From the NCBI GenBank assembly GCA_963701295.1, contig OY969585.1:1824001-1888000 (forward strand): a stretch of 64,000 nt of DNA. The letters run 5' to 3'. The number at the start of each line of letters is the position of its first letter. The stretch's first letter is position 1. Shown piece by piece: positions 3,041 through 21,139 of this stretch. The notes under the pieces are model-generated. The model searched no databases. It worked only from the letters and a program-made list of their open reading frames with translations, and was not told the origin of the DNA. The DNA comes from Ignavibacteriota bacterium (GTDB lineage Bacteria; Bacteroidota; Ignavibacteria; UBA10030). The position numbers were made by a program, and so were the translations under genes.

Positions 3041-4421
3041 ATGAATCCATTGGAACTAAAACTAGAGGAATTTGTCCGGTTTCATCATCTTATCGCCCAG
3101 AAACAAACTGTTCTTTTGGCTGTAAGCGGCGGGATGGATTCGATGGTAATGCTGCATGTCATCTCACATCTTCGAGAACGATTCGATGTGCAGATTGCAC
3201 TTGTGCATGTGAATCACCAATTGCGCGGTGAAGAATCGATGGAAGATGAACGGTTTGTCCGGAAAATGTCAGCCTCTTATGGAATCTGCTTTTATGGTGA
3301 ACGATTGGATGTACTCTCCTATGCAGATGAGCATGGGCTTTCAAAACAAATCGCTGCCCGGCAGCTTCGCTATGCGTGTTTTGAACGAGTTCGTCAACAA
3401 GTAGGTGCGCAAGTCGTTGCGACCGCACATCACGCTGATGACAATGCTGAAACCGTTCTGCTCAATATTCTGCGCGGAACCGGTATCCATGGATTGGCAG
3501 GAATTCCCCTAAAACGCGAGATCGGACGTATCATTCGTCCGCTGCTTTTTGCAACTCGGAAAGAGATCGAGATGTATGCAATGGAAAACGGCATCAAGTA
3601 CCGAAATGACTCATCGAATATGTCACTTGCGTATCGACGAAACTTGCTACGTCACAGCATCCTTCCACCTTTGGTGAAACGTTTCCCCCATATTGTCGAA
3701 ACATTGAACATTGTTGCTGCTACCATGCGCGATGTAAGTGAAAAATTACACGCAATGGTAGATGAGGCGTTACGTTCTCTTTCCTATAAAGATTCTCAAG
3801 ATCGCTTGATGTTGGATGTGAAGAAACTTGAAAGGGAGCCGGACTTTTTATGGGACGAAATATTTGTGGAGCTTCTCCATCGTATGCATATTGAGCCAAC
3901 TGAAAAGAAAGTTGACGCGCTGCATAGACTCTGCACAATGCCTACGGGTCGGATTGTAGAATTGAGCGGTGAGTTTTCAGCATGCAGAGATCGACAGCAC
4001 ATCGTTTTTAAAAGAACGAACGAGGAGAGGTCGAACATTCGGTATGTCGAATTCGGCAGAATTTATGAATACCAAGGGTGCCAAATTTCTATCAGCAATC
4101 CTGAACCGGTGCCAGCGGTTTTATCAGATACACAAGAGGTGGAATATATCGATGCCGAGAGATTAGGTCGACAGCTTGTTTTGCGCCCGTGGCAGGCAGG
4201 CGATTGGTTCATTCCTCTCGGAATGACGACAAAAAAAAAGCTCAGCGATTTTTTCACTGATCAAAAAGTACCACGGTTTAAAAAAGGCGTCAATTCCCGT
4301 TCTGGAATCTGACGGAACTATTGTGTGGATTTGTGGCAAGCGGCTTGACAACCGATTCAAATTGACTGAACATACGCGGACGGCGATTCGGCTTACGTAT
4401 CAATCATCAACCCGAGCATAA
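3041..4421 (+). CDS. tilS: tRNA(Ile)-lysidine synthetase; apparent 1-nt insertion in the A6 run at 4280-4285
   Basis: PP-loop AVSGGMDS, ATAHHADDNAET and RPLL motifs. The ORF 3041-4312 loses its C-terminus, which continues in another frame (ASIPVLESDGTIVWICGKRLD...) to a stop at 4421, abutting hpt. Confidence 0.93.
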
Positions 4422-4988: not shown

Positions 4989-7131
4989 GTGTTATTGATT
5001 ATGGAGTTTGAAATGAGTAGTGATATACAAAACGAAAACAAGGATGAGAAGGAACGGAACGCATCTCAGAAAAAACGTTCGACGCCCCCTCGTTTCCCAA
5101 AACGACCGATGAAACAACCGCACGAAGAAGATTCGCCATGGGGAAAATTCGGCAAAGTCATTTTGAGTTGGATTGCTATTATTCTTGCGGTGTTCCTTTT
5201 TATGTGGGCGTTTCGCACAAATGAGGAAACGGAATATGAGGTAGGCTTTACGACCTTTCAACAGTTATTGAATGATCAAAAGTTTGGCGATGCAACGGTC
5301 AAGATCAACGGGTATTCAATTTTCGATTTCCATGGGAAATTGAAAGAACCGATGGACATCCAAACCGCCAATGGAAAGACGGCCCGCAATGCCACACGCG
5401 TGACACTAACGCTTCCCTATACCAGTCTAGACGAATCGCTCGTCAATTCATGGATGGCAAAAGGACTAAAATTTCGGGTTGAGAAAGAAGATAATACATG
5501 GTTGAATGCTGCGATCAGTATTCTCCCCTGGATTCTGCTTCTTGGGATTTGGTTATTCATCTTCCGGCGAATGCAAGGCGGCGGCGCAGGCGGCGGAGCC
5601 AAGGGATTATTCTCGTTTGGCAAAAGCCGCGCGAAATTGCTCACCGAAGGATTGATGCAAATAACATTTGCTGATGTTGCAGGCGCCGACGAAGCGAAAG
5701 TAGAGCTGCAGGAGGTCATCGAGTTTCTCCGGGAGCCGGGGAAGTTCCAACGGTTGGGTGGAAAAATCCCGAAGGGCGTATTATTGCTCGGACCGCCGGG
5801 TACTGGCAAGACCTTGATGGCGCGCGCAGTTGCTGGAGAAGCAGGTGTTCCGTTTTTCTCCATCAGCGGTGCGGACTTTGTGGAGATGTTTGTCGGTGTA
5901 GGTGCAAGTCGCGTTCGAGATTTGTTCGAGCAAGGGAAACGAAGCGCACCATGCATTATTTTCATCGATGAAATTGACGCAGTAGGTCGGCACCGCGGTG
6001 CCGGAATTGGCGGTGGTCATGACGAACGGGAGCAGACACTTAACCAATTGCTTGTGGAGATGGATGGCTTTGAACAAAACACAGGTGTCATTATTATTGC
6101 GGCGACGAACCGGCCAGATGTTCTCGATCCGGCGTTGCTCCGGCCAGGGCGATTTGATCGACAAGTAGTAGTGGACCGACCGGATGTGAGAGGGCGCGAA
6201 GGAATTTTCCGAGTGCACACAAAGAACATTCCGCTGAATGAGGATGTGCGATCTAGAGGTACTTGCAAAAGGAACTCCGGGTTTATCCGGCGCCGATATT
6301 GCCAATCTTGTGAATGAAGCCGCGCTTCTTGCCGCCCGGCAAAACAGCAAAGCGGTCGCCATGCATCACTTTGAAGAGGCAAAAGATAAGGTGATGATGG
6401 GAACGGAACGAAAAAGCATGATCATCTCCGACCGTGAAAAGAAAACAACATCGTATCATGAGTCGGGTCACGTGCTCGTGGCAAGATTTTTACCAGAAGC
6501 CGATCCAGTGCATAAAGTAACGATCATCCCGCGTGGGCGCGCACTCGGTGTGACAACGTATTTACCGATCGATGAGAAACATTCCTACTCGCGTGAGTAT
6601 CTCGAAGCAATGATCACCTATATGCTTGGTGGGCGCGCGGCAGAAAAGTTGGTCTTCAATCAATTCACCACTGGTGCAGGCAACGATATTGAACGTGCCA
6701 CAGAACTTGCACGAAAAATGGTATGCGAATGGGGTATGAGTGAAAAACTCGGTCCGATGTCTTACGGCGCAAAAGAAGAAGAACTCTTCCTCGGTCGAGA
6801 GATTACCAAGACTCGGAACTTCAGTGAGAACACTGCCGTTGCTATCGATGCTGAAGTACGTTTAATCGTTACCAGTGCCATGAAGCGTGCGGATAAGATA
6901 TTGAAGGATAATATCAAGGTGCTGCACAGGTTATCGAACGCCTTGCTTGAGCGAGAGATATTAGACTCGGAGGAAATCGACAAGATCATTCGCGGTGAAG
7001 AACTTCCACCTGTTGATAAACGTGCCAATGGTACACCGGAATCATCAGAAACACCGTCGGCAGCGATCCCATTGCAGCCGAAAGCGAGTGTACCTAAACG
7101 ACCGGCATCAAGTGAAGCGAAAAAAACGTAG
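4989..7131 (+). CDS. ftsH: ATP-dependent zinc metalloprotease FtsH; apparent 1-nt insertion near 6248; start may be the ATG at 5013
   Basis: Two TM helices, Walker [15 protein letters not shown] and [20 protein letters not shown] in ORF 4989-6317; HESGH zinc motif in ORF 6238-7131. Confidence 0.95.
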
Positions 7132-7159
7132 TGCTTCACGCTGACCATGGAGAGTATCT

Positions 7160-7837
7160 GTGCCGCACGGTAGCGACCTGAAGCATCTTGACGAGAACGC
7201 GACGATAAACTATCGATATGAGATCGTACGGAAGGGAATTCATCTTTTTTCTCTTTCCATCCCTACAATATATTTTTTTATCTCCAAACAATTAGCTCTC
7301 TGCCTGCTTCTGCCGATCACGGTCGCGTTCATTGGCGTTGATACGGCGCGATATTATATTCCGTTTGTCTCTCGATGGTTCTATCGATGGTTCGGCTGGC
7401 TTTTGCGGCGGCATGAAACCGATACAAATCGAAAACGATTGAATGGCGCCTCGAATGTGCTCATCTCAGCTTCCTTGTGTGTTCTCCTCTTTCCTAAAGT
7501 GATTGCATTAAATGCATTCACTATTCTTATTATCTCGGATACGACATCGGCACTCGTTGGGAGGCGGTTTGGCAAGCATCGGTTCCTTGCGAAAAGTCTT
7601 GAAGGGTCGCTTGCATTCTTTATCTCCGCCGTGATAGTGATTCTTATTGCGCCAAAAGTGAGCCGTCTTCCCGCGGAGTACATTATCGGTATCGTCGCTG
7701 CGGCAATAGGCGCTGTTATTGAAGCGCTTCCGATCAGGATCGATGACAATCTTTCGATTCCTCTCGCGGTAGGGTTTTCCCTTTGGTGGCTTTACATGCT
7801 GTTTCTACCTGCTCTTGATCTCACACTGCTGATGTAA
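7160..7837 (+). CDS. SEC59/DGK1/VTE5-family (dolichol/phytol kinase, CTP_transf-like) membrane protein
   Basis: RKGIH, SDTTSALVGRRFG, KSLEGS and DDNLSIP motifs; multiple TM segments. Confidence 0.85.
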   Translation: MPHGSDLKHLDENATINYRYEIVRKGIHLFSLSIPTIYFFISKQLALCLLLPITVAFIGVDTARYYIPFVSRWFYRWFGWLLRRHETDTNRKRLNGASNVLISASLCVLLFPKVIALNAFTILIISDTTSALVGRRFGKHRFLAKSLEGSLAFFISAVIVILIAPKVSRLPAEYIIGIVAAAIGAVIEALPIRIDDNLSIPLAVGFSLWWLYMLFLPALDLTLLM

Positions 7838-8000
7838 TTTATTCTAATAGTTTTGTCTGAGCGGTGGATCGGATGTCTTTCCCGAGTCATCAAGATTGAA
7901 TTCTGAGCGCATTTCTAGATAAAAGGAGAGGCCTTTTCATGGCTTAAGATTTCTCTCAAGGAGGCATTCCATAAAAAGGCTTGGAGGGGGATATCTACTA

Positions 8001-10007
8001 CTACGCGGCTGCGGTTGTTTGACCTATATCAATACTCCTTAGGACTTTGGCGATCTGTTCGGGCGTTACCGGTTTATTCAAGATTGTGGTTACGCCGTAC
8101 TGCTTGAGCGCTTCGCGATTCGAATCTGAATCTTGTCCGGTGACTATAATTATGGGGATGTCGCTCGTTGCAGGATCTGCTTTAAGGCTGCGCACAAATT
8201 CCAAACCATCGAGATCAGGCATATCGTTATCGGAGATAATCATTTGCGGATGAAACTCGCGTGCAAGCTGTAATGCTTCTGCGCCATCTGCTGCATGCAG
8301 TACATTAGCATTGGGTAACACTCGCTTGATGTATCGAGTATGCAGCAGGCGTATTCCATGTTCGTCATCGACTACAAGAATGTTCTCACCTGCTTCAGGT
8401 TTGCTTTTCGGAAGCGTAATAAGAAAGAGTGTTCCGGTACCAGACGTGCTCTTCACTGAAATGTTGCCATGATGCTTCTGAACAATTTCATGTACGACGG
8501 GAAGGCCGAGGCCGGTTCCTTTTTCGCCTTGTAATCCTTTGCGCGTGTACTTCTCTTCAATTTTGAAAAGCTTATGCACATCATCTTCCGGAATGCCGAT
8601 GCCCGTATCGCGCACGCCGATGACCCAGTGATTACTTTGTTCCTCGATGAGATCTACCGTGACTGTTCCATTGGGTGGTGTGAACTTGAGCGAATTTCCC
8701 AGAAGATTTCCAAATACCTGGCCCAGCATATGTTTGTCACCATAGACCATCACTTTGGGCGGTAAGTTCGTCTGCAGTTTCACTTGTTTCTGAAGGGCAA
8801 GTCCCATCAGAGAATTCAAATTCTTCCGTACAATATCGTGCAGATCAAGTTCCACATGTTCCATCCGGATACGTCCTGATTCGAGACGCGACCAATCGAG
8901 CAGCTTATTCACGAGTGAGAGTTGGTCTTGTGCTGCTTCTTGTATATATGCCACAAATTGTAAGCGGTCTTCGGCTGTGAGCTGGTCGTTCTCTTTCAAC
9001 AAGATGTCGCAGAATCCCAGGATGCTGCTGAACGGAGAACGAAGGTCGTGTGATAAGATCGAGAAGAGCTTGTCTTTCTGTGCGTTCAAATCTGATAATG
9101 CGTTCTTTGATTTCTCCAGCGCCCAAACGTACTCCTGCAATTTCTTTTCCATTGCCTTGCGCGCGGTAATATCTTCCAACACGCCTTCGTAGCTGATCAC
9201 TTTTCCATCTTCATCCACTACCGTGCGGGCATTTTCCAGAACTGTGATGATTCTACCGTTCTTTCTCTTCAGGCTAATTTCCGTATTGACCACGTACCCT
9301 TTTTGATGCAGCGTTTCTGTCAATGCCTTGCGTTCTTCGGGATAGGCATATGTGTCGCGGGCAATGTCAAGGTCCGCAAGTTCATAGAAGTTGTTGTACC
9401 CAAGCAGCTTAAGCAATGCACGATTAGCGTTGATTAATTTTCCATTCGGACTGCTTTGGAACATCGGCATCACTGAGTTTGCAAATAAGCCGCGATATTT
9501 TGATTCGCTTTCGGTCAGAGCAGTGTGAGTAATTTTCTCGGCAGTAATATCACGGAATTGTGCAAGCATCAGCATTCGCCCATTATCCGATTCGACATAG
9601 GAATCGCACACTTCAACATCGAGGATTTGGTTGGTCCAGAGCACGAATCTTTTTTCATGCTGCAGTTCTGCCTCTCGATCCTTGAATCGTGATTCATACG
9701 CACGTGCTATCTTCTCACGGTTTTCCATGTCGGCATAGACACAGGTGAAGTGCTTGCCGATGAGTTCTTCAAACGTCATTCCCACAAGCCGGCAGTATGA
9801 CGGATTGACGGAGATGATCGTCCCTTTTTCATCTGTCAGTCTCATCCCTTCGTTCGAATTATCCCAGATGAAAGAAAGCACCTTTGCGGCGTTTTGCGGT
9901 CTATTCTCAGGGGATTTCTGCTTTTTTGCTACTCCTATCGATCTTGGTGTAATGGCTGCTGTCGGATTGAAAGGGATTATGTTGCCACTGATTGCTGCTA
10001 ATTCCAT
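8001..10007 (-). CDS. Cytoplasmic hybrid sensor kinase (PAS-PAS-HisKA-HATPase-REC)
   Basis: SHDLRSP H-box, NLLGNSLKFT, DTGIGI, GTGLGL; C-terminal REC (VVDD...SDNDMP...KP). Confidence 0.93.
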   Translation of the reverse strand: MELAAISGNIIPFNPTAAITPRSIGVAKKQKSPENRPQNAAKVLSFIWDNSNEGMRLTDEKGTIISVNPSYCRLVGMTFEELIGKHFTCVYADMENREKIARAYESRFKDREAELQHEKRFVLWTNQILDVEVCDSYVESDNGRMLMLAQFRDITAEKITHTALTESESKYRGLFANSVMPMFQSSPNGKLINANRALLKLLGYNNFYELADLDIARDTYAYPEERKALTETLHQKGYVVNTEISLKRKNGRIITVLENARTVVDEDGKVISYEGVLEDITARKAMEKKLQEYVWALEKSKNALSDLNAQKDKLFSILSHDLRSPFSSILGFCDILLKENDQLTAEDRLQFVAYIQEAAQDQLSLVNKLLDWSRLESGRIRMEHVELDLHDIVRKNLNSLMGLALQKQVKLQTNLPPKVMVYGDKHMLGQVFGNLLGNSLKFTPPNGTVTVDLIEEQSNHWVIGVRDTGIGIPEDDVHKLFKIEEKYTRKGLQGEKGTGLGLPVVHEIVQKHHGNISVKSTSGTGTLFLITLPKSKPEAGENILVVDDEHGIRLLHTRYIKRVLPNANVLHAADGAEALQLAREFHPQMIISDNDMPDLDGLEFVRSLKADPATSDIPIIIVTGQDSDSNREALKQYGVTTILNKPVTPEQIAKVLRSIDIGQTTAAA

Positions 10008-10492
10008 TATAACCTCCTGGAGACTTTCGTCTCACTCCTTTATTCTCTTCAGTATTGGCACAAGAGGGGTACCGTTAGGTTTATCGTCGATTTTCGAGCG
10101 GAATAGCAGTTTATATGCTTGAAATTCGTGCAGATTCTACAAAGAGATAGGGGATAAAAATGAGCTTAGAAAGGACCAAAGAACTGTCGACATACTTCGA
10201 TTGTGAACGAAGGAAAAATGGAAAGTAAATAAAAGAGGATGGATGGTGCGACCGCTCAAAGTATAAGACCGGGATTGTCTGACTTTAACTGATTTACTAT
10301 TACAGTGTTTCAGTCTAGTGTGATCAGGACTTGCTTGCCCGCCAGTTTTTTGGAGGGCGTTCTGACCGATACGACTGTTGAATGTCAGGAATCCCGCTTT
10401 GCTGGACCGACATCACTCACTTAATATTGGCGCACATTTCGGGGGATAACAAAACTAAAGTAGGTTCAATGCGCAAGATATCGGAAGCATTC

Positions 10493-11872
10493 CTAAGTCT
10501 TTATCTTATACTTTTCTGCAAGTCGATAAAGTGTTGCGCGTCCGATCTTTAATTTCATTGCAGCTTCTGCAATGTTGCCGTTTGCAATCTTGAGAGCATG
10601 CCGAATAGCGTTTTCTTTGAGTTTTTCTAATGGAGTAATCGTTTCTTGGCTCTCGAAGGAAAGGGAATGTTCTTTCGAGTCTGTCTCAGCATGTCCGTAG
10701 GATTGAATTGAGATAGGCAATTCTTTTTCCGTCAGTATCTGTCCGTCTGTTAAAACCATACCGCGCTGAATGACGTTTTCGAGCTCGCGCACATTGCCCG
10801 GCCAGGGATAATTGTAAAGCAAATCGAGAGCTTTATGCGAGAATCGAATCTTGGGCTTCCCAAGTTCCTCTCCAAGTTTCTTTAAAAAATAGTCGGCGAG
10901 CAAAAGGATGTCCGATTTTCGCTGGCGGAGTGGAGGAAGTATAATCGGAAATGATGAAATACGATAATACAGATCTTCTCTAAAATTCTTTTGTTTCACT
11001 TCTTCCCAGAGATTGCGATGAGTAGCGCAAATGAGTCGGGCATCAGTTTTGATTAATTCGCTGCCGCCGACCCGATCGAATTGTTTTTCCTGAATAACAC
11101 GAAGGATTTTTGCCTGCAGACTTAAATCCAATTCACCAATTTCGTCTAAGAAAATCGTGCCTCCGATTGCTTGCTCAAATTTTCCAATTCGCCGCTGAAC
11201 CGCACCGGTAAATGCACCTCGTTCATGGCCGAAGAGCTCGCTTTCCAGAAGGTCGTGAGGAATAGAAGCACAGTTCACGACCACAAAAGGGCCGCTTTGA
11301 CGGTTGCTGTTATAATGAATCGCACGTGCAATGAGCTCTTTGCCTGTTCCACTTTCCCCAAGAATGAGAACGCCAATATCGATCTGTTTCACTTTATTGA
11401 CGAGTTTGAACACTTCCTGCATTTCCCCGCTTTGTGAAACGATGTTGTCGAAATGCAAACGGGTCCCCACGCTTTCCCGTAAATCTTCCACTTCGCGGGA
11501 TAGGGATGCGAGCTTGAGAGAATTCTTTATTGCGATTTCTAGCCGTGGAAAATCTATGGGTTTGCTGAAATAATCTGCAGCACCAAGCTTCAGGGTTGTG
11601 ACCGCTAGTTCAATACTTCCTTGAGCTGAAAGAATAATGACAGGAATATTGGGATTACGCTGTTTGATTTCTTTTAACACATCAACGCCGTGGATGTCAG
11701 GAAGCATAAGATCCAACAAGACAAGATCCGGAAGTTCCGTCAGCTGATTGAGAAAAGATCTTCCGTCTGAAAATACTTTTGTCGTGTATCCCCACCGCTG
11801 ACCGACCCACATTTCAAGCAGCTTCGAAATAGTTATTTCATCATCGACAATATAGATTCGTTCTGTGCTCAT
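10493..11872 (-). CDS. Sigma54-dependent NtrC-family enhancer-binding response regulator (REC-AAA-HTH_8)
   Basis: GESGTGKE, ESELFGHERGAFTGA, FLDEIG and WPGNVREL motifs; Fis-type HTH; ATG at 11872 with GAGG RBS. Confidence 0.96.
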   Translation of the reverse strand: MSTERIYIVDDEITISKLLEMWVGQRWGYTTKVFSDGRSFLNQLTELPDLVLLDLMLPDIHGVDVLKEIKQRNPNIPVIILSAQGSIELAVTTLKLGAADYFSKPIDFPRLEIAIKNSLKLASLSREVEDLRESVGTRLHFDNIVSQSGEMQEVFKLVNKVKQIDIGVLILGESGTGKELIARAIHYNSNRQSGPFVVVNCASIPHDLLESELFGHERGAFTGAVQRRIGKFEQAIGGTIFLDEIGELDLSLQAKILRVIQEKQFDRVGGSELIKTDARLICATHRNLWEEVKQKNFREDLYYRISSFPIILPPLRQRKSDILLLADYFLKKLGEELGKPKIRFSHKALDLLYNYPWPGNVRELENVIQRGMVLTDGQILTEKELPISIQSYGHAETDSKEHSLSFESQETITPLEKLKENAIRHALKIANGNIAEAAMKLKIGRATLYRLAEKYKIKT

Positions 11873-11920
11873 TGCTGCCTCAGGTGGTGTTGGCAAGAAA
11901 GAAACATTTCTGCTGAAGGA

Positions 11921-12652
11921 TTATGAAACAATGGGAATTCGGATGATAAAGGTTGATCCTTCTCCAACTTGACTTTGCACAGTGATGTCGCCGCCGTGTT
12001 GATCAATAATGTGCTTTGCGAGAGCCAGTCCAACTCCGGTACCATGTGTTTCTTCATTTGGGCGATAGAGTTTCCCAAATCGTTTGAACAAAAAGGGAAT
12101 GTCTTTTTCCGGAATTCCCGGACCATCGTCTTGCACCGAAATAAGTGCTTGTTTGTCGATTGCTTCTGCTTTGAGAGTGACAGAGCCTCCGGGTTTTGTA
12201 AACCGGATAGCATTGTGAAGCACTTGGAATAGAGCGTTTGCTATTTTATCAGAATCGCACTTTGAAATAATTGGATCCTTTGGCAGATCTTTGGAAATTG
12301 TGATGGATTTGCTCAACGCCGGTCCGATGATAAGTGCTATTGCGCGATATATGATTTTTTGAATTTCAGATTCTTCAAACAAGAAATGAGCACGTCCTTG
12401 TTCAAGAGCGTCAAGTTCGATAAGGTCACCCACAATTTTTGCAAGTCGTAGTCCTTCATTCCGGATGTAATGCGCGTATTCTGTGCGTTGTCTTTTGTCG
12501 ATCTGCTCGTTTTCTTCGAGCATTGCCGCAAATCCTATAATGGAAGTAAGCGGAGTGCGGAATTCATGAGAAATTTGTGTAACAATTCGGTTCTTCAATC
12601 GCTGGATGCCAAAGAGATCCATTTCAATAGTAGTACTATTTTCTGTTTCCAT
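11921..12652 (-). CDS. Sensor-less histidine kinase (HisKA-HATPase)
   Basis: SHEFRTPLTSI, NAIRFT, DDGPGI and GTGVGL motifs. Start moved to the ATG at 12652 (AAGGGG RBS) because a sigma54 promoter lies inside the longer ORF. Confidence 0.88.
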   Translation of the reverse strand: METENSTTIEMDLFGIQRLKNRIVTQISHEFRTPLTSIIGFAAMLEENEQIDKRQRTEYAHYIRNEGLRLAKIVGDLIELDALEQGRAHFLFEESEIQKIIYRAIALIIGPALSKSITISKDLPKDPIISKCDSDKIANALFQVLHNAIRFTKPGGSVTLKAEAIDKQALISVQDDGPGIPEKDIPFLFKRFGKLYRPNEETHGTGVGLALAKHIIDQHGGDITVQSQVGEGSTFIIRIPIVS

Positions 12653-12717
12653 AGTTATTGCCCCTTGCCTCAAAGACATATTCATGTGATGAACTACGTC
12701 GTTATATTGTAAGTGAG

Positions 12718-12732
12718 GCAATCTATATGCCA
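12718..12732 (-). promoter_or_regulatory. Sigma54 -24/-12 promoter for the kinase/activator genes
   Basis: Minus strand reads TGGCAT-ATAGA-TTGC, with canonical spacing. Confidence 0.8.
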
Positions 12733-12807
12733 GCATTGATTTTACCATGAAAACTGTGGAAATTGATTAAATACATGAGTATAGAATATCTCTCATTTTC
12801 TTTTGTT

Positions 12808-12899
12808 GTATCATTATGGTACGTAATACTTAAATAAAAGTCCAGATATTTATAATTATGTTTGTTTTATTGAAGAAAAGTGAATTCTCATTATGAGTC
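12808..12899. promoter_or_regulatory. Candidate enhancer (UAS) palindromes between the divergent sigma54 promoters
   Basis: GTATCAT-T-ATGGTAC (12808-12822) and TTCTCAT-T-ATGAGTC (12885-12899) in an AT-rich spacer. Confidence 0.45.
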
Positions 12900-12970
12900 A
12901 TAAATCCCGATAAAATACATATAATGGGACAAGCTGTGACGAAATTGCCAAAAAATAAGGGAATTTGCAC

Positions 12971-12985
12971 TGGCACGCAGATTGA
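12971..12985 (+). promoter_or_regulatory. Sigma54 -24/-12 promoter for the pilin-like operon
   Basis: TGGCAC-GCAGA-TTGA about 60 nt upstream of the ATG at 13046 (-12 GA variant). Confidence 0.72.
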
Positions 12986-13045
12986 GTAATCATAGTTAGA
13001 AGAAAAATAAATAATATTTAATCACTCAATTTAAAGGATACAGCA

Positions 13046-13534
13046 ATGAAAAAGTTAATGATGGTTCTCGCGATTGGCGCAATGAGCATGTTGCTTGTGG
13101 GATCTGCTTATGCTCAGTCAACTACCACTCAAACTGTTAATCTTGTCGTTGGATCAGTTTACAAGATGACTGTATCTGGCAATCCAGGTCAGTTGAATAT
13201 CACCACAGGAACAGCTGGTACAGATGCTTTAACGCCGGTCAGTGACGCTACAACGACCTACAGTATCACCCAGAACTATGGACCTACGGTGAAGATTACT
13301 GCAGGCTTGGGTACCGCACTTGCAGCCGGATATACGTTGTCACTTACTTTGGCAAGCTCCAAAGGCACAAGCGCTGGACCCGTTAATCTTTCTACAACCG
13401 CTGCCAGCGTTGTAACTGGTATCGCAATAGGAGCTGATGCAAACAAGACGATTACTTATACATTTGCAGCAAATGCCTCTGCTGGAACATTGGCTTCGAC
13501 CAATGAGGTTGTTACACTGACATTGACTAACTAA
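13046..13534 (+). CDS. Secreted pilin-like subunit 1 (probable major subunit)
   Basis: Sec signal ending AYA|Q; Thr/Ala/Gly-rich beta strands; TQTVNLVV N-terminal strand, KITA motif, C-terminal VTLTLTN. Confidence 0.75.
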   Translation: MKKLMMVLAIGAMSMLLVGSAYAQSTTTQTVNLVVGSVYKMTVSGNPGQLNITTGTAGTDALTPVSDATTTYSITQNYGPTVKITAGLGTALAAGYTLSLTLASSKGTSAGPVNLSTTAASVVTGIAIGADANKTITYTFAANASAGTLASTNEVVTLTLTN

Positions 13535-13577
13535 AATTTAATAAATTATTATCATACCTAACTCAAAGGAGACAACA

Positions 13578-14057
13578 ATGAAAAAGTTAACGATGGTCCT
13601 CGCGATTAGTGCAATGAGCATTTTGTTTATAGGATTTGCTTATGCTCAAACAAATATCGCCACACAAACATTCAACCTTGCCGTTAATTCGATTTCTAAA
13701 ATAGTCGTATCAGGCAATCCGGGAAATTTAACGATCACGACTGCAGTACCTGGTTTCGATCCAACACCAGTTTCTGACAATTCGACAACCTATACTTTCA
13801 CACATAACGATAAGGCTAATGGTGCAAAGATTACTGCAAGCTTGGCTCCTGCCCTTGCATCCGGATATACTTTGACAATTGGTTTGGACGGCAAGACCCC
13901 AGTTGATATTTCTGCCTCTGTTCAGGATGCTGTGACAGGTATCGCAGCGGGAGCTTATACAGGAAAAGCGATTGCATATCAATTCTCGGCTTTAGCAAGT
14001 GCCGGGGTATTAGCATCGACTCCCGAGACTGTTACACTGACAGTAGTTGCCCTATAA
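13578..14057 (+). CDS. Secreted pilin-like subunit 2 (paralog of subunit 1)
   Basis: Near-identical signal peptide and RBS region to subunit 1; TQTFNLAV, SGNPG, PVSD, KITA, VTLTVV. Confidence 0.75.
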   Translation: MKKLTMVLAISAMSILFIGFAYAQTNIATQTFNLAVNSISKIVVSGNPGNLTITTAVPGFDPTPVSDNSTTYTFTHNDKANGAKITASLAPALASGYTLTIGLDGKTPVDISASVQDAVTGIAAGAYTGKAIAYQFSALASAGVLASTPETVTLTVVAL

Positions 14058-14071
14058 ATTATCCCTTTTCG

Positions 14072-14110
14072 ATTACCTCGGAGCTTTGTTGCTCCGAGGT
14101 AATTTATTTA
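14072..14110 (+). terminator. Intergenic hairpin (terminator or mRNA stabiliser)
   Basis: Perfect 13-bp stem ATTACCTCGGAGC/GCTCCGAGGTAAT with a 6-nt loop, followed by TTATTT. Confidence 0.75.
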
Positions 14111-14135
14111 ACACTATTAATTTAATGGAGCTACA

Positions 14136-14633
14136 ATGAAAAAGTTAATCGTTCTCGCCGCCTTTGTTACACTGAGTGCCTTCGCTTTTCAGAATGCGTT
14201 TTCTCAAGCTGCAAATCAGGCAAATCAGCTTGTCACGCTTGAAGTTAAAGTAGTGAATAAGATAAATATTTCTGGCCCAGTTTCATTATTGATAGATGAT
14301 GCTATTCCTGGAGGCGCTGGCCTGCAGCCTGTTTCCAATAATGCGACATCATACAATATTACACACAATGGTTCTGCAACAGGCAAGATTACAGCCAGCA
14401 TTAATTCAGGTCTGCCGGCTGGAATTACGTTACAACTTACATTAGCAAGCACTCTTGGAACAAGCGATGGAATTCAGGATATATCGAGCGCAACAACTGC
14501 TCTCAATGTTGTGGAAGGTGTTAAACAAGGTAAGGATGCAACTCAAATGATAACCTACAACTTCTCAGCGACACCGGAAGCTGGTGTATTTGCTTCAACA
14601 GTAAAGACGGTTACATTAACGGTTACAGACTAA
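14136..14633 (+). CDS. Secreted pilin-like subunit 3
   Basis: Signal AFS|Q; NQLVTLEV, KITA, ITYNFSA, VTLTVTD. Confidence 0.75.
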   Translation: MKKLIVLAAFVTLSAFAFQNAFSQAANQANQLVTLEVKVVNKINISGPVSLLIDDAIPGGAGLQPVSNNATSYNITHNGSATGKITASINSGLPAGITLQLTLASTLGTSDGIQDISSATTALNVVEGVKQGKDATQMITYNFSATPEAGVFASTVKTVTLTVTD

Positions 14634-14662
14634 TTAGTTTTTTGCAGGGAGACTAACTAACT

Positions 14663-14707
14663 CGCGGAGGCTCAGATTCCATACTTGAGCCCCCGCGGTT
14701 TTGTTTT
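14663..14707 (+). terminator. Intrinsic terminator after subunit 3
   Basis: CGCGGAGGCTCA/TGAGCCCCCGCG stem (11 of 12 pairs) then GTTTTGTTTT. Confidence 0.75.
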
Positions 14708-14738
14708 GTGTAAGGGACATGAGATGTGAGTACGGGCA

Positions 14739-15344
14739 ATGAAACCTACAAAAAATCAAATAGAAATTGGTAAGTATATGTTGTATCTGATTACGAGGAT
14801 TACTATATTTAACCGCATTGTCATGAGAACAAGAATGATATCGCGCTTCTGCAAACGAACAATTTCCTCCATAGTAATCACGTTGTTTTTGATCTTGTTG
14901 CCGAGAATCACTTTTAGCGCAACAACAGCGCAGCACACTGTTACTGTCATCGTTAATGCGATTACAATTATACAAATCAGCGTAGGGACTATCAATCTCA
15001 ATATACCAGGTGGCGTAACTGCGGTTGTAGTTGCAGGGCAAGATCAGATGACTGTCACCGATAACACCAGTAAGCTTCTTTGGGGTACCAACAGCAGTCC
15101 CAGGAAGATTACAATCATAACGAATCTTGTTACACAAAAGTTTACATTGCAAGCATTAGCCATGAGTCCAACAGTTGGCACAGCGGCGTCGGCAGCGACA
15201 CTCTCGACTACAGCTTCTGATTTTATAACAAATATTGCAAGAAGTTCAGGTAGTGCCACTGTGCAATATACCGGTATCGCTTTAGCATCAAAAGGAACCG
15301 GAACGGATTCGCACACAATCACATTTACTATTACAACGCAGTAA
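14739..15344 (+). CDS. Secreted pilin-like subunit 4 (minor); true start probably 14823 or 14835
   Basis: Hydrophobic signal then AQHTVTVIV, RKITI, QYTGIA, ITFTITTQ. Confidence 0.7.
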   Translation: MKPTKNQIEIGKYMLYLITRITIFNRIVMRTRMISRFCKRTISSIVITLFLILLPRITFSATTAQHTVTVIVNAITIIQISVGTINLNIPGGVTAVVVAGQDQMTVTDNTSKLLWGTNSSPRKITIITNLVTQKFTLQALAMSPTVGTAASAATLSTTASDFITNIARSSGSATVQYTGIALASKGTGTDSHTITFTITTQ

Positions 15345-15348
15345 GAGT

Positions 15349-15828
15349 ATGAACAGATCGCATCGTTTTAGAATATCTCATCTCCTGTATGTTTTGGGAT
15401 TTGTGTTCTTGATCGCAATGAAAGGAGTAGGACAGACAAGTATTACAATGAATGGAGGTAATCAGACCATGACAATTACTACGGGAATTGCCGGTGGTCA
15501 ATTGGTAAATGTCATCAACACGACCTGTTATCTTACATACCATGGGTCGCTCACCCATGTCAAGAAAATTACTGTCAGTACCACATGCCCAGGTCAAAGT
15601 TTCAATTTAAGTGTGGTAGGTACTGTGACTGGTGGGGGCACTGCACAGGCGGCAGTGACACTCACTACTGGAATGGCGAGCACCGATTTTGTTAGAGATA
15701 TTCCTGTGAATACGACTAATGGCAGATGCACATTGAACTATACTGCATCAGCTACATTTGCTCAAGGCAATAGTACTGACTTTGGCAACGATGTCTATAC
15801 CATCACGTACACTATCGTAACACAATAA
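15349..15828 (+). CDS. Secreted pilin-like subunit 5 (minor, lacks the N-terminal strand)
   Basis: Signal GVG|Q; KKITV, LNYTASA, ITYTIVTQ; three Cys. Confidence 0.7.
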   Translation: MNRSHRFRISHLLYVLGFVFLIAMKGVGQTSITMNGGNQTMTITTGIAGGQLVNVINTTCYLTYHGSLTHVKKITVSTTCPGQSFNLSVVGTVTGGGTAQAAVTLTTGMASTDFVRDIPVNTTNGRCTLNYTASATFAQGNSTDFGNDVYTITYTIVTQ

Positions 15829-15841
15829 ATAGGTCATCACT

Positions 15842-16666
15842 ATGAGATACCTTTCTTCTCCATATCTGCGCGGATTGTTTCTTGTTTCCATGCTTGCTTC
15901 GTGTCTCACTGCGCAAGTTTCGATCATCGGCGAACTGAGCCAGGACAAAGACGCTCTTCCGGGTGATGTGTACACAGGAACAATTGTCATTCGGAATGAT
16001 ACGAATGAACCGCAAGAGGCGAAGGTGTACCAGACCGATTACACGTTTCAATTCAATGGGACGAATAATTATGGTGAACCGGGAGTGTTTCCTCGGTCAA
16101 ATGCAAAATGGATTGCATTCAGCCCGGCATATGTTACTCTGCCGCCTCAAGGGACTATGGCTGTGAATTTTACTGTAACTGTTCCGAAAGATACAACGCA
16201 TAAGCTGATCGGTACTTATTGGAGTATGTTGATGGTGGAAGGAATTCAGAAGGGATCGGCAGAATCCTCTATTCGCCCGAAAGATGCAAAGGCGCAAATG
16301 GGCATTATGCAGACCATCCGCTATGGAATTCAAATTGCCACATCCATTGCAAAGACAGGAACAAAAAAGATTCAATTTGTCGGCCACGACGTTATTAAGA
16401 AAGAAGGCGGCAAACGCATATTGCAGATTGATATTGAGAACACAGGGGAGATTGCAATGCGGCCGGACGTTTATGTGGAACTTTTTGACGAACAAGGAAA
16501 ATCACTTGGAAAGTACCCCGGTATAAAGTACCGCATCTATCCCGGCACTTCTGTTCGCCAGTCCATTGATGTAAGCAGTGTTGCACCAGGGACCTATAAA
16601 GCATTAATAGTTGTTGATGCAGGCGGTGATGATGTATTTGGAGCACAATACGCATTGAAATTCTGA
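15842..16666 (+). CDS. Periplasmic two-Ig-domain pilus chaperone-like protein (PapD/DUF916-like)
   Basis: Signal LTA|Q; WIAFSPAYVTLPP..V.FTVTVP, GTYWSMLMVE, alternating strand GIMQTIRYGIQI, second domain IENTGE...IYPG. Confidence 0.65.
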   Translation: MRYLSSPYLRGLFLVSMLASCLTAQVSIIGELSQDKDALPGDVYTGTIVIRNDTNEPQEAKVYQTDYTFQFNGTNNYGEPGVFPRSNAKWIAFSPAYVTLPPQGTMAVNFTVTVPKDTTHKLIGTYWSMLMVEGIQKGSAESSIRPKDAKAQMGIMQTIRYGIQIATSIAKTGTKKIQFVGHDVIKKEGGKRILQIDIENTGEIAMRPDVYVELFDEQGKSLGKYPGIKYRIYPGTSVRQSIDVSSVAPGTYKALIVVDAGGDDVFGAQYALKF

Positions 16667-16675
16667 GTACCGAAA

Positions 16676-19600
16676 TTGAAAACATTGTTGACACATTATC
16701 CGGTTCGGCTTAACCGGATTTTTTTTATCTGCTTGCTTGCAGCTTTGCCATTGTTGTACGGATTTGCCCGCCAGCAAGAAAGCAAAGTAGTTTGTGATGC
16801 AGTTCAATCGCAAATCGAGGCAAAGCCTGGGACAATTGCTGCTGCATCAATCAAGGTAACGAATTTAACTTCTGAACAGCAGGCATACGATGCTGTGATC
16901 GATCTTCCTGCAGGATGGAGACCGGTTATTCGAGAATTTCCATTCGAAATCAAAGCGGGAGATGCAGATGTTCGTCTCATAACATTTTCCATCCCTTCTG
17001 ACGCTCCTGCAAATCGTTATGAAGTTCGTTATTCTGTTCGGGACCATGCTTCACCTGTCCATGAAGCTATTGTGTCCGTAGAAGTTGTTGTTGTTCGTGT
17101 CGTTCAATTAGATCTTGCACTTCTTCAGGCGCCTCGATTCGTTATTGCCGGGACTACGTTTACAACAGCGGTTCTCGTTACGAACCAAGGAAATTCAGCG
17201 AGTTCTGTGCAGATCAGCTATAGGAGCTCGAATGACTTCCCGGTCCGATTAGACTCGACAATAATCAATTTAGCTCCAAAGGAGACCAGACGAGTACAGT
17301 TTTTCGTTACATCTGATGAAAAATCAGGGAAAGTGAACCATACACTTGAAGTCGAAGCGAAGTCAGGGCAAGATACAACAATCAGGGTTAAAATTTCGAG
17401 CGTAGTAGAAGTCATTCCGCGCATGACAAAAGTTGAAGAAGAATATCTCCTGTATCCTGTTTCTCTCAGGGTGCGAGAAGTTGGTCAAGACGGAAAGTTC
17501 TCCCCGCAAGGAGAAGTCTATGGGTATGGAAGTTTGAACGAGAATAGAACGGATCGGCTTGAGTTTCTTTTCCGGGCGCCGGAAACACAAACAGTCTCAA
17601 CATTGGGACAAAGGGATGAATACCGAATCTCGTATCGAAGAGACAGTCTTGAATTATATGCGGGAGATCAAAATTATACACTTTCGACATTGACAGAATT
17701 AGGGCGCTATGCTTCAGGTATCGGGGGGAGGATAACAAGTGGTGCGATATCAGCCGGTGGATTCTATAATTCAACAAGGTGGACAATATCAAAACAAAAG
17801 GAAGCCGGCGGATTCCTCGATTATGATGTTATGAAAGGCGCTACTCTTGGCGTGAATTATCTCAGCAAGCGAGAACAATTTTCCAGCGATATAATGAGTG
17901 TGCAAGGCCTCTTTAAGCCGTTAACCGGCACAATCCTTAATCTTGAATATGGTACCGGTGTAAAAGACGATAAACACGATGATGCTTTTGCGGCCCTGCT
18001 GCAAGGCAACCAACGATGGATTGCGTACGATCTACGTTTTGTTCAAGCGGGGCCAGATTTTGGAGGCTATTACCAGGACATTGATTTTTTCTCGTCGAGC
18101 ATTAATCTTCAACCTATGCGAAACGTGCGTATTGAGACTTATATCAGGCTGGAAAATAGAAATCTCGCACGCGATACGAATCAGACTGATGTACCGCATG
18201 ATGCCTCTTATCAAGTCGGTGTTGGATACTTGGATTATTTCTCAATTTACTATCTGAACAACAGTCAGCAAGATCAATCTGATAGTTCAAAGTACCGAAC
18301 ACGGGAAGACGCGATTCAAGCCAGAGTTGGGTACAACTTCTCTGTTGCAAATGTCTATGCAAATATGGATTACGGAACAACGCGAGATGAACTTCTAATA
18401 AAAAAATCACCTTACAAGCGCTTAGCTCTTTCTGCGAGTTTCAATCCAATTGCGAAACAGAGCTATAGTACTTCATTTGAGTATACCACCTCTAGGGATC
18501 CCAACACAGGGGAGGATCAGGAACGTTTATCAGCGAACCTGAGCGCATGGATTCTCTTTGGCCAATCGACCCAAGCACAATTAAATATATACGGAAGCCG
18601 TATCATTGCATCGATACCGCAAACATACAGTATGTTCGAAGCATCCATCGAGCATGTGTTTCCATTCAACCATAAGATCACACTGCATGCGCGTATCACC
18701 AACATCACACCGTCTATTACTAACAGAGAAGCCGCTTATACTTTCGAATATGCTATTCCGATAGGAATTCCCATCAAACGGATTACAGCGGTTGGGCAGC
18801 TCCGCGGCACCATCATAGATGAAAATGGAAGAGGTATTGCGAACGTACTGATCAATATTGGTGATGCAGCGGCTTTATCCGATAGGCACGGCGGATTCTT
18901 TTTCGCATCACTGAAGCCTGGTTCTGTATTTCTCACAGTGGATAAGGCAAGCATTGGATTTGATCGAATAACAACTCAACCTATGCCGATGGAAGTGCTC
19001 GTTCGCGGGGGCGAAGAAACGAATCTGATACTTCGGGTTACTAGAAGCGTGGCAATTGCAGGCGATGTACTTCTGTTTAGCGCAAAGGAGCAAGGATTTT
19101 TAGATACATCCAATGCTCTTACTGAAATGGGTGGAAAGTCAGGTGTCTTTCTCGAACTTTCTAACGGCGCTGAAATGAATCGGAGGGTAAGTGACAATAA
19201 GGGAAGGTTTCTTTTTGCAGATTTGTGCCCTGGACAATGGGTACTTAAAGTGATTGGCGGCGACATACCCGAATACTATACTATTTATCCAGATTCAATG
19301 AGGATTGAGTTGTTACCCGGTGAAAGAAAAGATGTTACTTTTCAGCTTCGGCCTCGCAAACGCACGATTAAGATGTTGCAGGGAGATTCGTCGATACTAG
19401 AAACACCTCCTGTAATTGAAAGGAAAGACACGCTTTCTTCACTCATGAACGCTCCGAAGGTGTGTATGGTTACGTATAATGAGATGAGAAAAGGTTACGT
19501 TCTTCAAATCTCTTCGTGGCTCACATGGAAGAAAGCAAATCGAGTAGCGAAAAGAGCAGATAAGATTGTTGGGCTTAAGACGTTCAAAGAAACTGCCAAT

Positions 19601-19699
19601 ATACCATCTCTAGGACGGCGATACCGAGTGTTCATCGGTATTTTCAAAACCAGAGAAGATGCTGTTGTCTTTTGTTACCAGTTCGATTTCAATTTGTAG
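16676..19699 (+). CDS. Usher-like outer-membrane protein: N-terminal Ig-like (NEW3-type) domains, beta-barrel, two carboxypeptidase-regulatory-like domains, C-terminal SPOR domain
   Basis: LPAGW and VTNQGN Ig motifs; about 400 aa of amphipathic aromatic-ending strands; SDRHGGFFFASLKPG and SDNKGRFLFADLCPG; GYVLQISSW...YRVFIGIFKTREDA. Confidence 0.65.
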   Translation: MKTLLTHYPVRLNRIFFICLLAALPLLYGFARQQESKVVCDAVQSQIEAKPGTIAAASIKVTNLTSEQQAYDAVIDLPAGWRPVIREFPFEIKAGDADVRLITFSIPSDAPANRYEVRYSVRDHASPVHEAIVSVEVVVVRVVQLDLALLQAPRFVIAGTTFTTAVLVTNQGNSASSVQISYRSSNDFPVRLDSTIINLAPKETRRVQFFVTSDEKSGKVNHTLEVEAKSGQDTTIRVKISSVVEVIPRMTKVEEEYLLYPVSLRVREVGQDGKFSPQGEVYGYGSLNENRTDRLEFLFRAPETQTVSTLGQRDEYRISYRRDSLELYAGDQNYTLSTLTELGRYASGIGGRITSGAISAGGFYNSTRWTISKQKEAGGFLDYDVMKGATLGVNYLSKREQFSSDIMSVQGLFKPLTGTILNLEYGTGVKDDKHDDAFAALLQGNQRWIAYDLRFVQAGPDFGGYYQDIDFFSSSINLQPMRNVRIETYIRLENRNLARDTNQTDVPHDASYQVGVGYLDYFSIYYLNNSQQDQSDSSKYRTREDAIQARVGYNFSVANVYANMDYGTTRDELLIKKSPYKRLALSASFNPIAKQSYSTSFEYTTSRDPNTGEDQERLSANLSAWILFGQSTQAQLNIYGSRIIASIPQTYSMFEASIEHVFPFNHKITLHARITNITPSITNREAAYTFEYAIPIGIPIKRITAVGQLRGTIIDENGRGIANVLINIGDAAALSDRHGGFFFASLKPGSVFLTVDKASIGFDRITTQPMPMEVLVRGGEETNLILRVTRSVAIAGDVLLFSAKEQGFLDTSNALTEMGGKSGVFLELSNGAEMNRRVSDNKGRFLFADLCPGQWVLKVIGGDIPEYYTIYPDSMRIELLPGERKDVTFQLRPRKRTIKMLQGDSSILETPPVIERKDTLSSLMNAPKVCMVTYNEMRKGYVLQISSWLTWKKANRVAKRADKIVGLKTFKETANIPSLGRRYRVFIGIFKTREDAVVFCYQFDFNL

Positions 19700-19875
19700 C
19701 ACCACCCTGTCACAGTTTTTATTCTACTATCTCTTTAGTCTGTAGCACCAACATTGTAGAAAATTCAGTTTCCTCAAATTGATGCAGCACTGCTCTAAGC
19801 TTTTGTTTCTTTGTTAATTCCTTCCTTTTCGACGAATTAGCCGGTTTATTCAATATCTATATTGCCTAATGTGCT

Positions 19876-19890
19876 TGGCACCTAAATTGA
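19876..19890 (+). promoter_or_regulatory. Second plus-strand sigma54 promoter
   Basis: TGGCAC-CTAAA-TTGA, same pattern as 12971. Confidence 0.68.
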
Positions 19891-19909
19891 AGGATTGAGG
19901 TAAGAGACT

Positions 19910-20482
19910 ATGAAAAACCGACAATTACATATGAACACAACTTACAGCTTGATAAACAAGAGTCTTTTTGCGTATCATCGTATATCCACTTTTGTGAAAA
20001 CCATTTCTATCATAGTTATAATGATAGTCGTTGCCAGCGCTGGTCTAATGGCGCAAGGTCGTGGCAACAGTGCGACTCAATCGGTTACATTGGAAGTGAA
20101 GCCAATCGCTAAAATATCTGTTGCGGGCTACTTGACGCCTCTTATTATCAATGATGCTCTTCCCGGATCTGGCCTCGCATCTGTGAGCGATGAGAATACT
20201 AAATACAGTCTCGTAACAAATATTGATAATATGAAAATTGTCGCATCCATTAACGACAGGATGCCCACCGGGACGAAGTTGATGATCAAATTAACGAGTA
20301 GTAAAGCGGCGAGTGCTGGACTCGTTGATTTATCCAACGCGTTAACTCCGGTGGATGTTGTCAGAGGCATCAAAAAAGGAAGCGATGTGGGTCAATCTAT
20401 TAGCTATACCTTTGCAGCAAATGCCGAGGTTGATGATATTCCGTCACAATCAAGAACGATTACACTAACGCTTACGAATTGA
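19910..20482 (+). CDS. Secreted pilin-like subunit 6; start may be 19931
   Basis: Signal LMA|Q; ATQSVTLEV, VSD, KIVAS, ISYTFAANA, ITLTLTN; clear paralog of subunits 1 and 3. Confidence 0.75.
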   Translation: MKNRQLHMNTTYSLINKSLFAYHRISTFVKTISIIVIMIVVASAGLMAQGRGNSATQSVTLEVKPIAKISVAGYLTPLIINDALPGSGLASVSDENTKYSLVTNIDNMKIVASINDRMPTGTKLMIKLTSSKAASAGLVDLSNALTPVDVVRGIKKGSDVGQSISYTFAANAEVDDIPSQSRTITLTLTN

Positions 20483-20491
20483 TTCGAAGTC

Positions 20492-20860
20492 ATGAAAAAA
20501 AATTCTTCCATAGGTTTGCTGTTCATTCTTATTCTTTTTGTGAGTTCGCAGGCGAATTCGCAAATGAAAAACTCGGCAACGCAGACGATAGTGTTTGCAG
20601 TTAACCATTCAGCAAAACCTGCTCTGAAAGTCCTTGCAAACTCTCCAAATTTAAACCTGTCTTCGAACTCCTCTGGAACGGCCGCGTTTCGGAATTCATT
20701 GGAAAAAATGACTGTGAAAGTGACGATTGCTGAAACTTCAACCAGCACAGCAGTATCGAAGAATACTTCAGATATTCATATGGATATAAAATCTATCCTT
20801 CAAGCAAGAAATTCAATCATGTTTGATGAAATTCCAACGATAGTAACAATTACCGAATAA
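20492..20860 (+). CDS. Shortened secreted pilin-like protein 7
   Basis: Signal ANS|Q; NSATQTIVFAV, VKVTI, C-terminal IVTITE; about 40 aa shorter than its paralogs. Confidence 0.55.
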   Translation: MKKNSSIGLLFILILFVSSQANSQMKNSATQTIVFAVNHSAKPALKVLANSPNLNLSSNSSGTAAFRNSLEKMTVKVTIAETSTSTAVSKNTSDIHMDIKSILQARNSIMFDEIPTIVTITE

Positions 20861-21139
20861 TCTTTTCTCATCTCACTTATACCTTCATTCTCTTCATCGA
20901 AGAAGCTTTTAAGAAGATTTCTAGATATTCAAGAAGATCCTTTTCAAGGAAATGAATAGTTGGACGTTCTTGAATATCCAAATGCTCATCATCTACGGGA
21001 GCAAGAGATCACCGCATGGCACTGTTATAAAAGATGGTTTAAATCGGAGGGGAACTATACACGGATCTACAATAGTAAAACTTGACTTTTATAAGTCAGA
21101 CGGTGTTTTAAAACGTTGATTAAAATACACTGGGAGAGT

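Follow-up and report, generated by a model that had tools for sequence, protein, structure and literature searches.

A sigma54 promoter box requires an activator. In the NtrB/NtrC system two 17-bp dyad sites lie about 100-190 bp upstream of the sigma54 start of glnAp2, and the regulator is within its own regulon; in PilS/PilR a sigma54 activator stands beside pilin genes, which are of type IV, and the sensor is a membrane protein. DivL from alphaproteobacteria is a pseudo-kinase with a degenerate CA domain and a kept DHp. ChpT, also from alphaproteobacteria, is described in PMC9981736 as a kinase-derived protein with the same combination of a degenerate CA domain and a kept DHp. The closest described layout is that of ZraSR/zraP in enterobacteria, where, according to the account in PMC4987338, one NtrC-type regulator acts on divergent sigma54 promoters, those of its own kinase-regulator operon and of an envelope gene, ZraS being a sensor kinase and ZraP a periplasmic chaperone and repressor. 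Here we analyse a 64,000-nucleotide stretch of an Ignavibacteriota genome (assembly GCA_963701295.1, contig OY969585.1, positions 1,824,001 to 1,888,000, hereafter the window, whose coordinates are used below), in which a divergent pair of predicted sigma54 promoters separates a kinase-activator operon from a cluster of pilin-like genes.

At the level of sequence the locus has a ZraSR/zraP-like layout, with divergent sigma54 boxes, one of them facing the kinase-activator operon, and shared dyad sites, but it is not a member of that system: its kinase is sensorless and, across the family, often predicted to be dead, the divergent output is the fibre cluster with no ZraP-like protein, the activator falls below the ZraR cut-off (387 vs 760 bits), and the motif is different. 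The 17-bp dyad layout likewise resembles the NtrC site, however with a different half-site, an activator scoring 409 bits against a cut-off of 559, no nitrogen genes and no identified basal sigma70 promoter. Unlike the type IV pilins of PilS/PilR, the subunits carry signal peptides of the Sec type and are predicted to adopt an Ig fold of the donor-strand type; unlike in ChpT and DivL, the decay of the kinase is ongoing and repeated within one group, from intact to DHp-only, in a protein predicted to be co-transcribed with a sigma54 activator. Divergent self-activating sigma54 cassettes are already known and the promoter layout alone is ordinary; what is new is the motif with its regulon, a fibre cassette that is portable, and a cognate kinase that has decayed repeatedly. 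No published account of the system was found in the literature searched, most subscription journals lying beyond its coverage. The reading that we favour, and consider reasonably probable, is that the activator binds palindromes in the spacer and turns on both the fibre operon and its own operon, the sensorless kinase acting as a co-induced phosphatase brake.

The -24/-12 box of the regulator operon (12718..12732, minus strand) reads TGGCATATAGATTGC from 12732 to 12718, and that of the fibre operon (12971..12985, plus strand) reads TGGCACGCAGATTGA; transcription is predicted to start at about 12706 (minus) and about 12997 (plus), respectively. A look-up of RNA runs that could map these starts listed none. 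Both boxes were read from the sequence at the coordinates given by a first-pass annotation of this DNA, and the distance between the back-to-back promoters, which it had put at about 240 bp, measures 238 bp of AT-rich spacer. Each has GG at -24, TG(C/A) at -12, the fixed spacing and a gene downstream. The genome is complete (one contig, 3.64 Mb) and contains 44 matches to TGGCA[CT]N5TTG[CA] (25 plus, 19 minus), among which only the present two form a divergent pair at most 300 bp apart (one observed vs 0.039 expected in the whole genome). This rarity is modest evidence alone, and conservation decides. A genome-collection scan with the chaperone of the fibre cluster as the query, which is thus present in every fibre locus by design, identified 79 loci, mostly in records titled as Ignavibacteria or Bacteroidota metagenome-assembled genomes (MAGs), and one more locus was obtained separately. 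Both boxes are found in all 23 loci with the sensorless kinase (hereafter the mini-kinase) opposite the pilins, and in 12 of 12 held-out loci that were found via the activator and stood outside the motif training (one of them, L113, is a near-identical second copy of the training locus L067). The divergent pair is therefore kept in orthologous loci, a check that had been suggested earlier, and rpoN, on which the first-pass annotation had made its reading depend, occurs in one copy in this genome and in 41 of 41 genomes examined. Of 46 boxes, 29 have TTGA and 9 have TTGC as the -12 element. An Rfam scan of 7000-22000 gave zero matches. As to the integration host factor (IHF), its exact consensus was present in just 2 of 23 spacers, despite two HU/IHF-family genes in the genome, and its involvement is not claimed.

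The spacer between the boxes carries the candidate enhancer. Motif training used the window and 22 loci, i.e. 23 spacers of 195-267 bp (L041 was excluded because of an N gap in its spacer), and a de novo palindromic search by expectation maximisation (EM) returned a single motif and none other, tGTaTCA-N3-TGAtACa, with a log-likelihood ratio (LLR) of 326 at width 17 vs 38-71 in five dinucleotide shuffles. The two TCAT-T-ATG palindromes reported earlier for this region are present (TCATTATGG at 12811-12819 and TCATTATGA at 12888-12896), but as described they were incomplete, being merely the cores of this 17-bp motif. The centre of predicted site 1 (TGTATCATTATGGTACG, 12807..12823) lies at about -109 relative to the minus start and -182 relative to the plus start, and that of predicted site 2 (ATTCTCATTATGAGTCA, 12884..12900) at about -105 relative to the plus start and -186 relative to the minus start; a degenerate third site (12903..12919, 3.5 bits) occupies the 19-bp tandem position at which most relatives have a strong site. 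Each of the 23 training spacers contains two or more sites scoring at least 10 bits, while the 12 held-out spacers contain 27 sites (null mean 0.27, maximum 2 in 300 shuffles), with two or more in 11 of them. When ranked with a matrix trained without the window and without five close loci, site 2 is 4th and site 1 is 6th among the 3.64 million positions of the genome, and the two are the sole site pair within 120 bp genome-wide.

The positions of the sites are conserved as well. Measured from the pilin box, a site is found at 146-176 bp in 22 of the 23 spacers, at 73-92 bp in 20 and at 58-73 bp in 19, the centres lying at about 60, 79 and 157 bp across the training loci, and a 19-bp tandem pair is present in 16/23. 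Distances from site 1 to the regulator box cluster near 60, 71 and 82 bp (period 10.5 bp, R 0.57, p 0.0005, a nominal value uncorrected for kinship, as related genomes are not independent). In the window the geometry is nearly a mirror image, each box facing sites at about 80 and about 157-158 bp; for comparison, most predicted sigma54 promoters in the Desulfovibrio analysis of PMC4641369 lie at most 100 nt from the nearest activator site. A second perfect palindrome of 13 bp (TTATGAGTCATAA, 12891-12903) overlaps site 2, is not kept in the alignments of relatives and is probably a by-product of the right half of site 2.

The activator gene (10493..11869, minus strand, ATG at 11869) encodes a 458-aa NtrC-type sigma54 enhancer-binding protein of the REC-AAA+-HTH_8 architecture (Pfam Response_reg, Sigma54_activat and HTH_8), with the receiver Asp, Walker A, GAFTGA loop and Fis-type HTH all in place. 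It misses the NCBIfam equivalog cut-offs of AtoC (445 bits, cut-off 714) and the PEP-CTERM regulator (419/503), as well as those of NtrC and ZraR quoted above. The activators adjoining fibre loci form one clade (support 100 in a quick tree), whose 20 members all keep the REC Asp, Walker A and G[AS]FTGA, together with a recognition helix RAT[LFM]YR that is found in 0 of the 12 other activators of this genome. Judging from the loci compared, the motif travels with this clade. Among 30 fibre loci without an adjacent activator, a forward box is found in 2 and a site in 2, both together in L060 alone, and the genome of L060 has an activator ortholog on another contig, while four other such genomes tested have none. 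Conversely, where the activator is present and the chaperone absent, the genes opposite the cassette encode DUF4402 subunits, a PapD-like protein or a giant adhesin-like protein that carries invasin and T9SS-tail domains. Close matches to the activator receiver domain occur in 134 of 401 genomes of the class, and in 4 of 5 genomes from other families a loose site-plus-box pattern was identified (8 matches vs 1 for the reversed control; 7/8 include a site of at least 10 bits), with two thioester-domain proteins, a KaiC-like ATPase and a small membrane protein, among others, downstream. On the other hand, 80 loci from a metagenome scan with the alignment of the activator C-terminus (79/80 at 48% identity or less, no orthologs added) contained no box-plus-site composite, and this zero among mostly distant activators with a similar helix counts against a simple helix-to-motif rule.

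Several observations on activator loci may be added. At L293, L295, L288, L290 and L292, which belong to other families, the genes behind the motif and box encode thioester-domain (TED) surface proteins, a small N-terminal membrane protein that is conserved, and a KaiC-like ATPase. One genome (G008; L067, L113 and L114) has three activator matches and two copies of the cassette with identical mini-kinase DHp and different fibre clusters; the frameshifts of L067 and the chimeric-looking L114 suggest assembly errors. A few kb past the right end of the window, at genome positions 1889547 and 1892853, there are another sigma54 activator and a strong sigma54 box.

The mini-kinase gene (11921..12652, minus strand) encodes a 243-aa HisKA-HATPase protein, recognised by Pfam and alignments, and ends 51 bp ahead of the activator start, no terminator-like site being listed in between. 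Its longest open reading frame (ORF) starts at 12748, upstream of the predicted transcription start at 12706, therefore the true start is probably the ATG at 12652. Only about 30 residues precede the His and there is no sensor domain. The sensorless set comprises 36 copies (L026, cut by a contig end, was excluded); the DHp search pattern demanded Thr, Ser or Asn at +4, and the single copy that it missed, on account of the H+1 residue (L051, read by hand), has Thr. The ATP-binding domain is absent from 5 of the 36 copies, by deletion, since the activator gene follows closely, and 14 more have the domain but have lost the DxGxG (G1) box. The acid at H+1 is replaced by Ala, Gly or Asn in 10/36 copies, a group that overlaps the other losses, and with all losses combined 23/36 are predicted to be unable to autophosphorylate. 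Throughout this decay His, Thr+4 and Pro+5 are kept in 36 of 36 copies, including the DHp-only ones with 59-73 residues after the His. The DHp of dead copies is as close to the full-length consensus as that of intact ones (49% identity each), while identity of the CA domain is 45% in intact vs 27% in dead copies.

The full-length consensus comes from 40 activator loci fetched class-wide, of which 26 have a full-length kinase upstream (355-994 aa; PAS domains were seen in the one scanned, L231 from another family). Their DHp is closely similar to that of the sensorless form, and all 26 keep the His, the H+1 acid, Thr+4 and DxGxG. A box with sites within 2.1 kb upstream is found in 1 of the 26 loci, a range that misses the promoters of the longest kinases (in G393, the promoter is further out). 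According to the residue rules of Willett and Kirby (PMC3510030), the H+1 acid is needed for kinase activity only and the Thr/Asn for phosphatase activity only, and E-to-A and E-to-G mutants are kinase-minus and phosphatase-plus. Together with the family pattern these rules indicate that the conserved role of the mini-kinase is probably something other than autophosphorylation. A phosphatase made alongside the activator fits best as the role of the family, at least from its residue pattern, and we incline slightly towards phosphatase activity or another form of negative control as the conserved job; the window's own copy may be bifunctional. In one locus (L269, genome G412) the mini-kinase is replaced, between the box and the activator, by a short hydrophobic ORF of about 49 codons, which could encode a small regulatory membrane peptide.

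That the activator acts on both operons, as the first-pass annotation had proposed, is likely and draws comparative support from the motif, its positions, its co-occurrence with the activator and the loci that are not divergent. It is highly probable that the adjacent activator drives the fibre promoter, and only a little less so that it drives its own; autoactivation is well supported because the motif travels with the activator clade and because the box plus sites of the non-divergent arrangements point at the activator gene. In four such loci a box with sites is aimed at the activator gene, and none was found to have a divergent partner. The G412 box, with tandem sites 59 and 78 bp away and none facing the other way, reads into a short ORF, behind which comes the activator. 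The box of G393, whose sites are likewise 59 and 78 bp away, opens a single co-oriented series made up of the pilins, chaperone, usher-like gene, kinase, receiver and activator. G325 has two copies of the mini-kinase, the inner of which retains a box with sites at 74 and 148 bp, an internal second promoter. The case of G349 is weaker: there a box with weaker sites lies ahead of a full kinase and activator. The sites could instead serve the fibre promoter alone, the regulator-side box being driven by another of the 13 full-length sigma54 activators of the genome or bound unproductively. A stand-alone adhesin promoter (G006) and a second pilin promoter (G196) do keep two sites without a listed divergent box, which speaks against exclusive sharing and means that two sites need not imply it; nonetheless, the non-divergent cases put the box and sites straight before the activator operon, site 1 is helically phased to the regulator box and the palindromic search gave one motif only, which makes this alternative very improbable. 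The tie between activator and motif is itself weakened by the presence of 12 further activators and by some distant control loci in which the first pilin detected may not open the operon.

How the loop behaves is a separate matter. In the model favoured here, phosphorylated activator dimers would occupy the sites about 80 and about 157 bp from each box, oligomerise and loop to the sigma54 holoenzyme at either box, where the GAFTGA loop would open the promoter complex. More activator would then be made, closing a positive loop, and the DHp protein made with it would strip the phosphate from the activator, closing a negative one, so that output would be capped or graded and not bistable. What the sequences show directly is the boxes, the motif, its positions and co-occurrence, the residue patterns and the limits of the module; we infer binding, start sites, co-transcription, phosphatase activity and fibre assembly as steps of this model. 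The first-pass annotation had suggested that expression could be switch-like, which finds no support, given that the co-encoded kinase is sensorless, 23/36 copies are predicted to be kinase-dead and 36/36 keep His and Thr+4. Positive autoregulation does not imply bistability: in the study of PhoPQ in PMC3750022 the positively autoregulated wild type, with its phosphatase intact, is graded and becomes bistable once a point mutation removes the phosphatase. For this genome a capped or graded response appears more likely than a toggle, because Thr+4 is kept everywhere and the tandem third site is degenerate (3.5 bits). The Thr mutated in the PhoPQ work is reportedly the H+4 residue. A pure positive loop, in which a constitutively active sensorless kinase and the activator amplify each other and fibre expression is bistable, would gain from the well-supported autoactivation, from the several sites and 19-bp tandem pairs that could yield cooperativity, from the failure to find another cognate kinase, and from the window mini-kinase, which combines every kinase motif with the lack of a sensor. 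It is nevertheless rather unlikely, as the cassette persists with 23/36 copies predicted to be unable to autophosphorylate, Thr+4 is retained, wild-type PhoPQ with its phosphatase intact is graded (PMC3750022), and the tandem third site is degenerate in this very genome.

The mini-kinase might also be a ChpT-like histidine phosphotransferase that relays phosphate to the activator from a hybrid kinase encoded elsewhere in this genome, its co-induction reinforcing the positive loop. The acid at H+1 is kept in both ChpT and Spo0B, whereas here it is changed to Ala, Gly or Asn in 10/36 copies on several separate branches, which matches the kinase-minus, phosphatase-plus mutants. The relay would account for an invariant His alongside a decaying CA domain, as described for ChpT (PMC9981736), and would supply the otherwise missing phosphoryl source, hybrid kinases being available (the neighbour at 8001-10007 and a 960-980 aa kinase in 5/5 genomes); however, some genomes contain that neighbour although no cassette was found in them, others contain the cassette although a search did not find the neighbour, and we regard the relay as quite unlikely. 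Several facts nonetheless weigh against the phosphatase brake. The H-E, N, G1, F and G2 boxes of the window mini-kinase are all intact, and 13/36 copies, the window's included, have the His, the H+1 acid and G1 all present. On a quick DHp tree the label 'dead' requires 5 changes, of which well-supported branches force at least 2, and the loci are related. Thr+4 is invariant also in the 26 active-looking full-length kinases and hence not specific to phosphatases, while the invariant His is equally compatible with a phosphotransferase. None of the 5 genomes tested yielded a full-length ortholog of the ancestral kinase (identity at best 49%), and a pure phosphatase therefore leaves the phosphoryl source unexplained. 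Finally, a source of basal transcription was not found, the sigma70 promoter scan giving 30 sigma70-like sites vs 29.7 expected from shuffles, i.e. no excess.

We speculate, more tentatively than for the phosphatase brake itself, that a sigma54 'surface-attachment' activator with its own palindrome, spread throughout the class Ignavibacteria, has in one lineage been rewired into a portable self-activating fibre/adhesin cassette, and that its sensor kinase has repeatedly been stripped to a DHp-only, kinase-minus and phosphatase-plus brake of about 100 residues. If true, this would be a natural series of dedicated phosphatases and pseudo-kinases arising from sensor kinases, with the activating input coming via another route. 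The locus pairs an activator with a defined motif and target promoters in a bacterial class that has received little study, attachment structures being what the pair is predicted to govern, and it provides a natural allelic series at one and the same place in the operon (full sensor, sensorless but intact, H+1 mutant, G1-dead and DHp-only), which makes the evolution of pseudo-kinases and dedicated phosphatases, as well as the phosphatase function of a natural bare DHp, directly testable. To this is added an unnamed fibre family with chaperone-usher-like subunits across many phyla.

The predicted fibre cluster opens with five pilin-like genes with signal peptides (13046-13534, 13578-14057, 14136-14633, 14739-15344 and 15349-15828, plus strand), for which no Pfam or NCBIfam family was found save one weak chance-level match. 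The AlphaFold model of pilin 1 from a 130-sequence alignment has a pLDDT of 95.8 (a single-sequence fold, at 33.5, was unusable), and its best structural match is CfaB (Z 8.0, rmsd 3.5 over 103 aligned residues), with which archaeal cannula subunits and further chaperone-usher pilins tie; on the strength of the modelled fold the label 'pilin' seems reasonable. They are followed by a putative periplasmic chaperone of 274 aa with two Ig-like halves (15842..16666, plus strand; weak Fn3-like and WxLIP matches only) and a putative usher-like outer-membrane protein of 1007 aa (16676..19699, plus strand), in which Ig-like and CarboxypepD domains flank a stretch of 15 amphipathic beta-strand candidates. 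The predicted fold of the subunits, best matched by those of alternate and archaic chaperone-usher pili (CFA/I CfaB, CsuA/B), and the order of pilins, chaperone-like protein and large beta-rich protein are reminiscent of these pili; however, the Z-score is just 8.0 and shared with cannula proteins, and weak WxL/WxLIP leads take the place of an usher or PapD profile match. No usher or PapD-type chaperone profile from Pfam/NCBIfam matched any window protein at E<=0.01, PDB profile searches with the pilin, chaperone and usher-like protein gave no pilus match, and membership of the cluster in the chaperone-usher family is not shown.

A third sigma54 box (TGGCACCTAAATTGA, 19876..19890, plus strand) precedes a distal pilin-like gene and a short secreted protein (19910..20860, plus strand). 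It is found on the forward strand in 22/32 loci and on the reverse in 0/32, with no enhancer site of at least 9 bits beside it in the window and few in relatives, and may depend on a different activator or on sites further away. Pilin 2 and pilin 3 are each followed by a strong hairpin (14071-14102 and 14667-14697, respectively); these may set subunit ratios via partial termination or RNA stabilisation. Relatives of the cluster (13046-20860) occur in records titled Planctomycetota, Verrucomicrobiota, Rhodothermia, Deltaproteobacteria, Armatimonadetes and Zixibacteria. A C-terminal SPOR domain is present in 13/29 usher-like proteins, and weak WxL/WxLIP leads recur in the cluster. Lacking a named family, the pilin/chaperone/usher-like cluster may represent an undescribed class of fibres.

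The whole module spans 10311..21100 and is missing as a single block from the close relative G004 (locus L284), where window position 10310 joins 21101 across about 200 bp; in three other close relatives similarity stops at 10310-10323. The PAS-PAS-HisKA-HATPase-REC hybrid kinase at 8001..10007 (minus strand) is thus a neighbour outside the module: it is found in 21/41 genomes, among them four close relatives that match it at 95-96% identity but yielded neither activator nor chaperone, and it was rejected as a member of the circuit, being a core gene in relatives without the module, which begins at about 10311. The left boundary of 8001 in the first-pass annotation wrongly took this kinase in. 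Different genes stand upstream of the hybrid kinase in 5 of 6 relatives fetched (L282-L287), and in G004 the site is empty, which suggests a hotspot of rearrangement or insertion. Further to the left, ftsH (4989-7131) is split into overlapping ORFs (4989-6317 and 6238-7131) and is one ORF in the relative L284, and a tilS-like ORF (3041-4312) seems to shift frame near its end; both may reflect sequencing frameshifts. After groES-groEL, 2378-2815 encodes a tandem-domain DUF3276/PurA-like nucleic-acid-binding protein.

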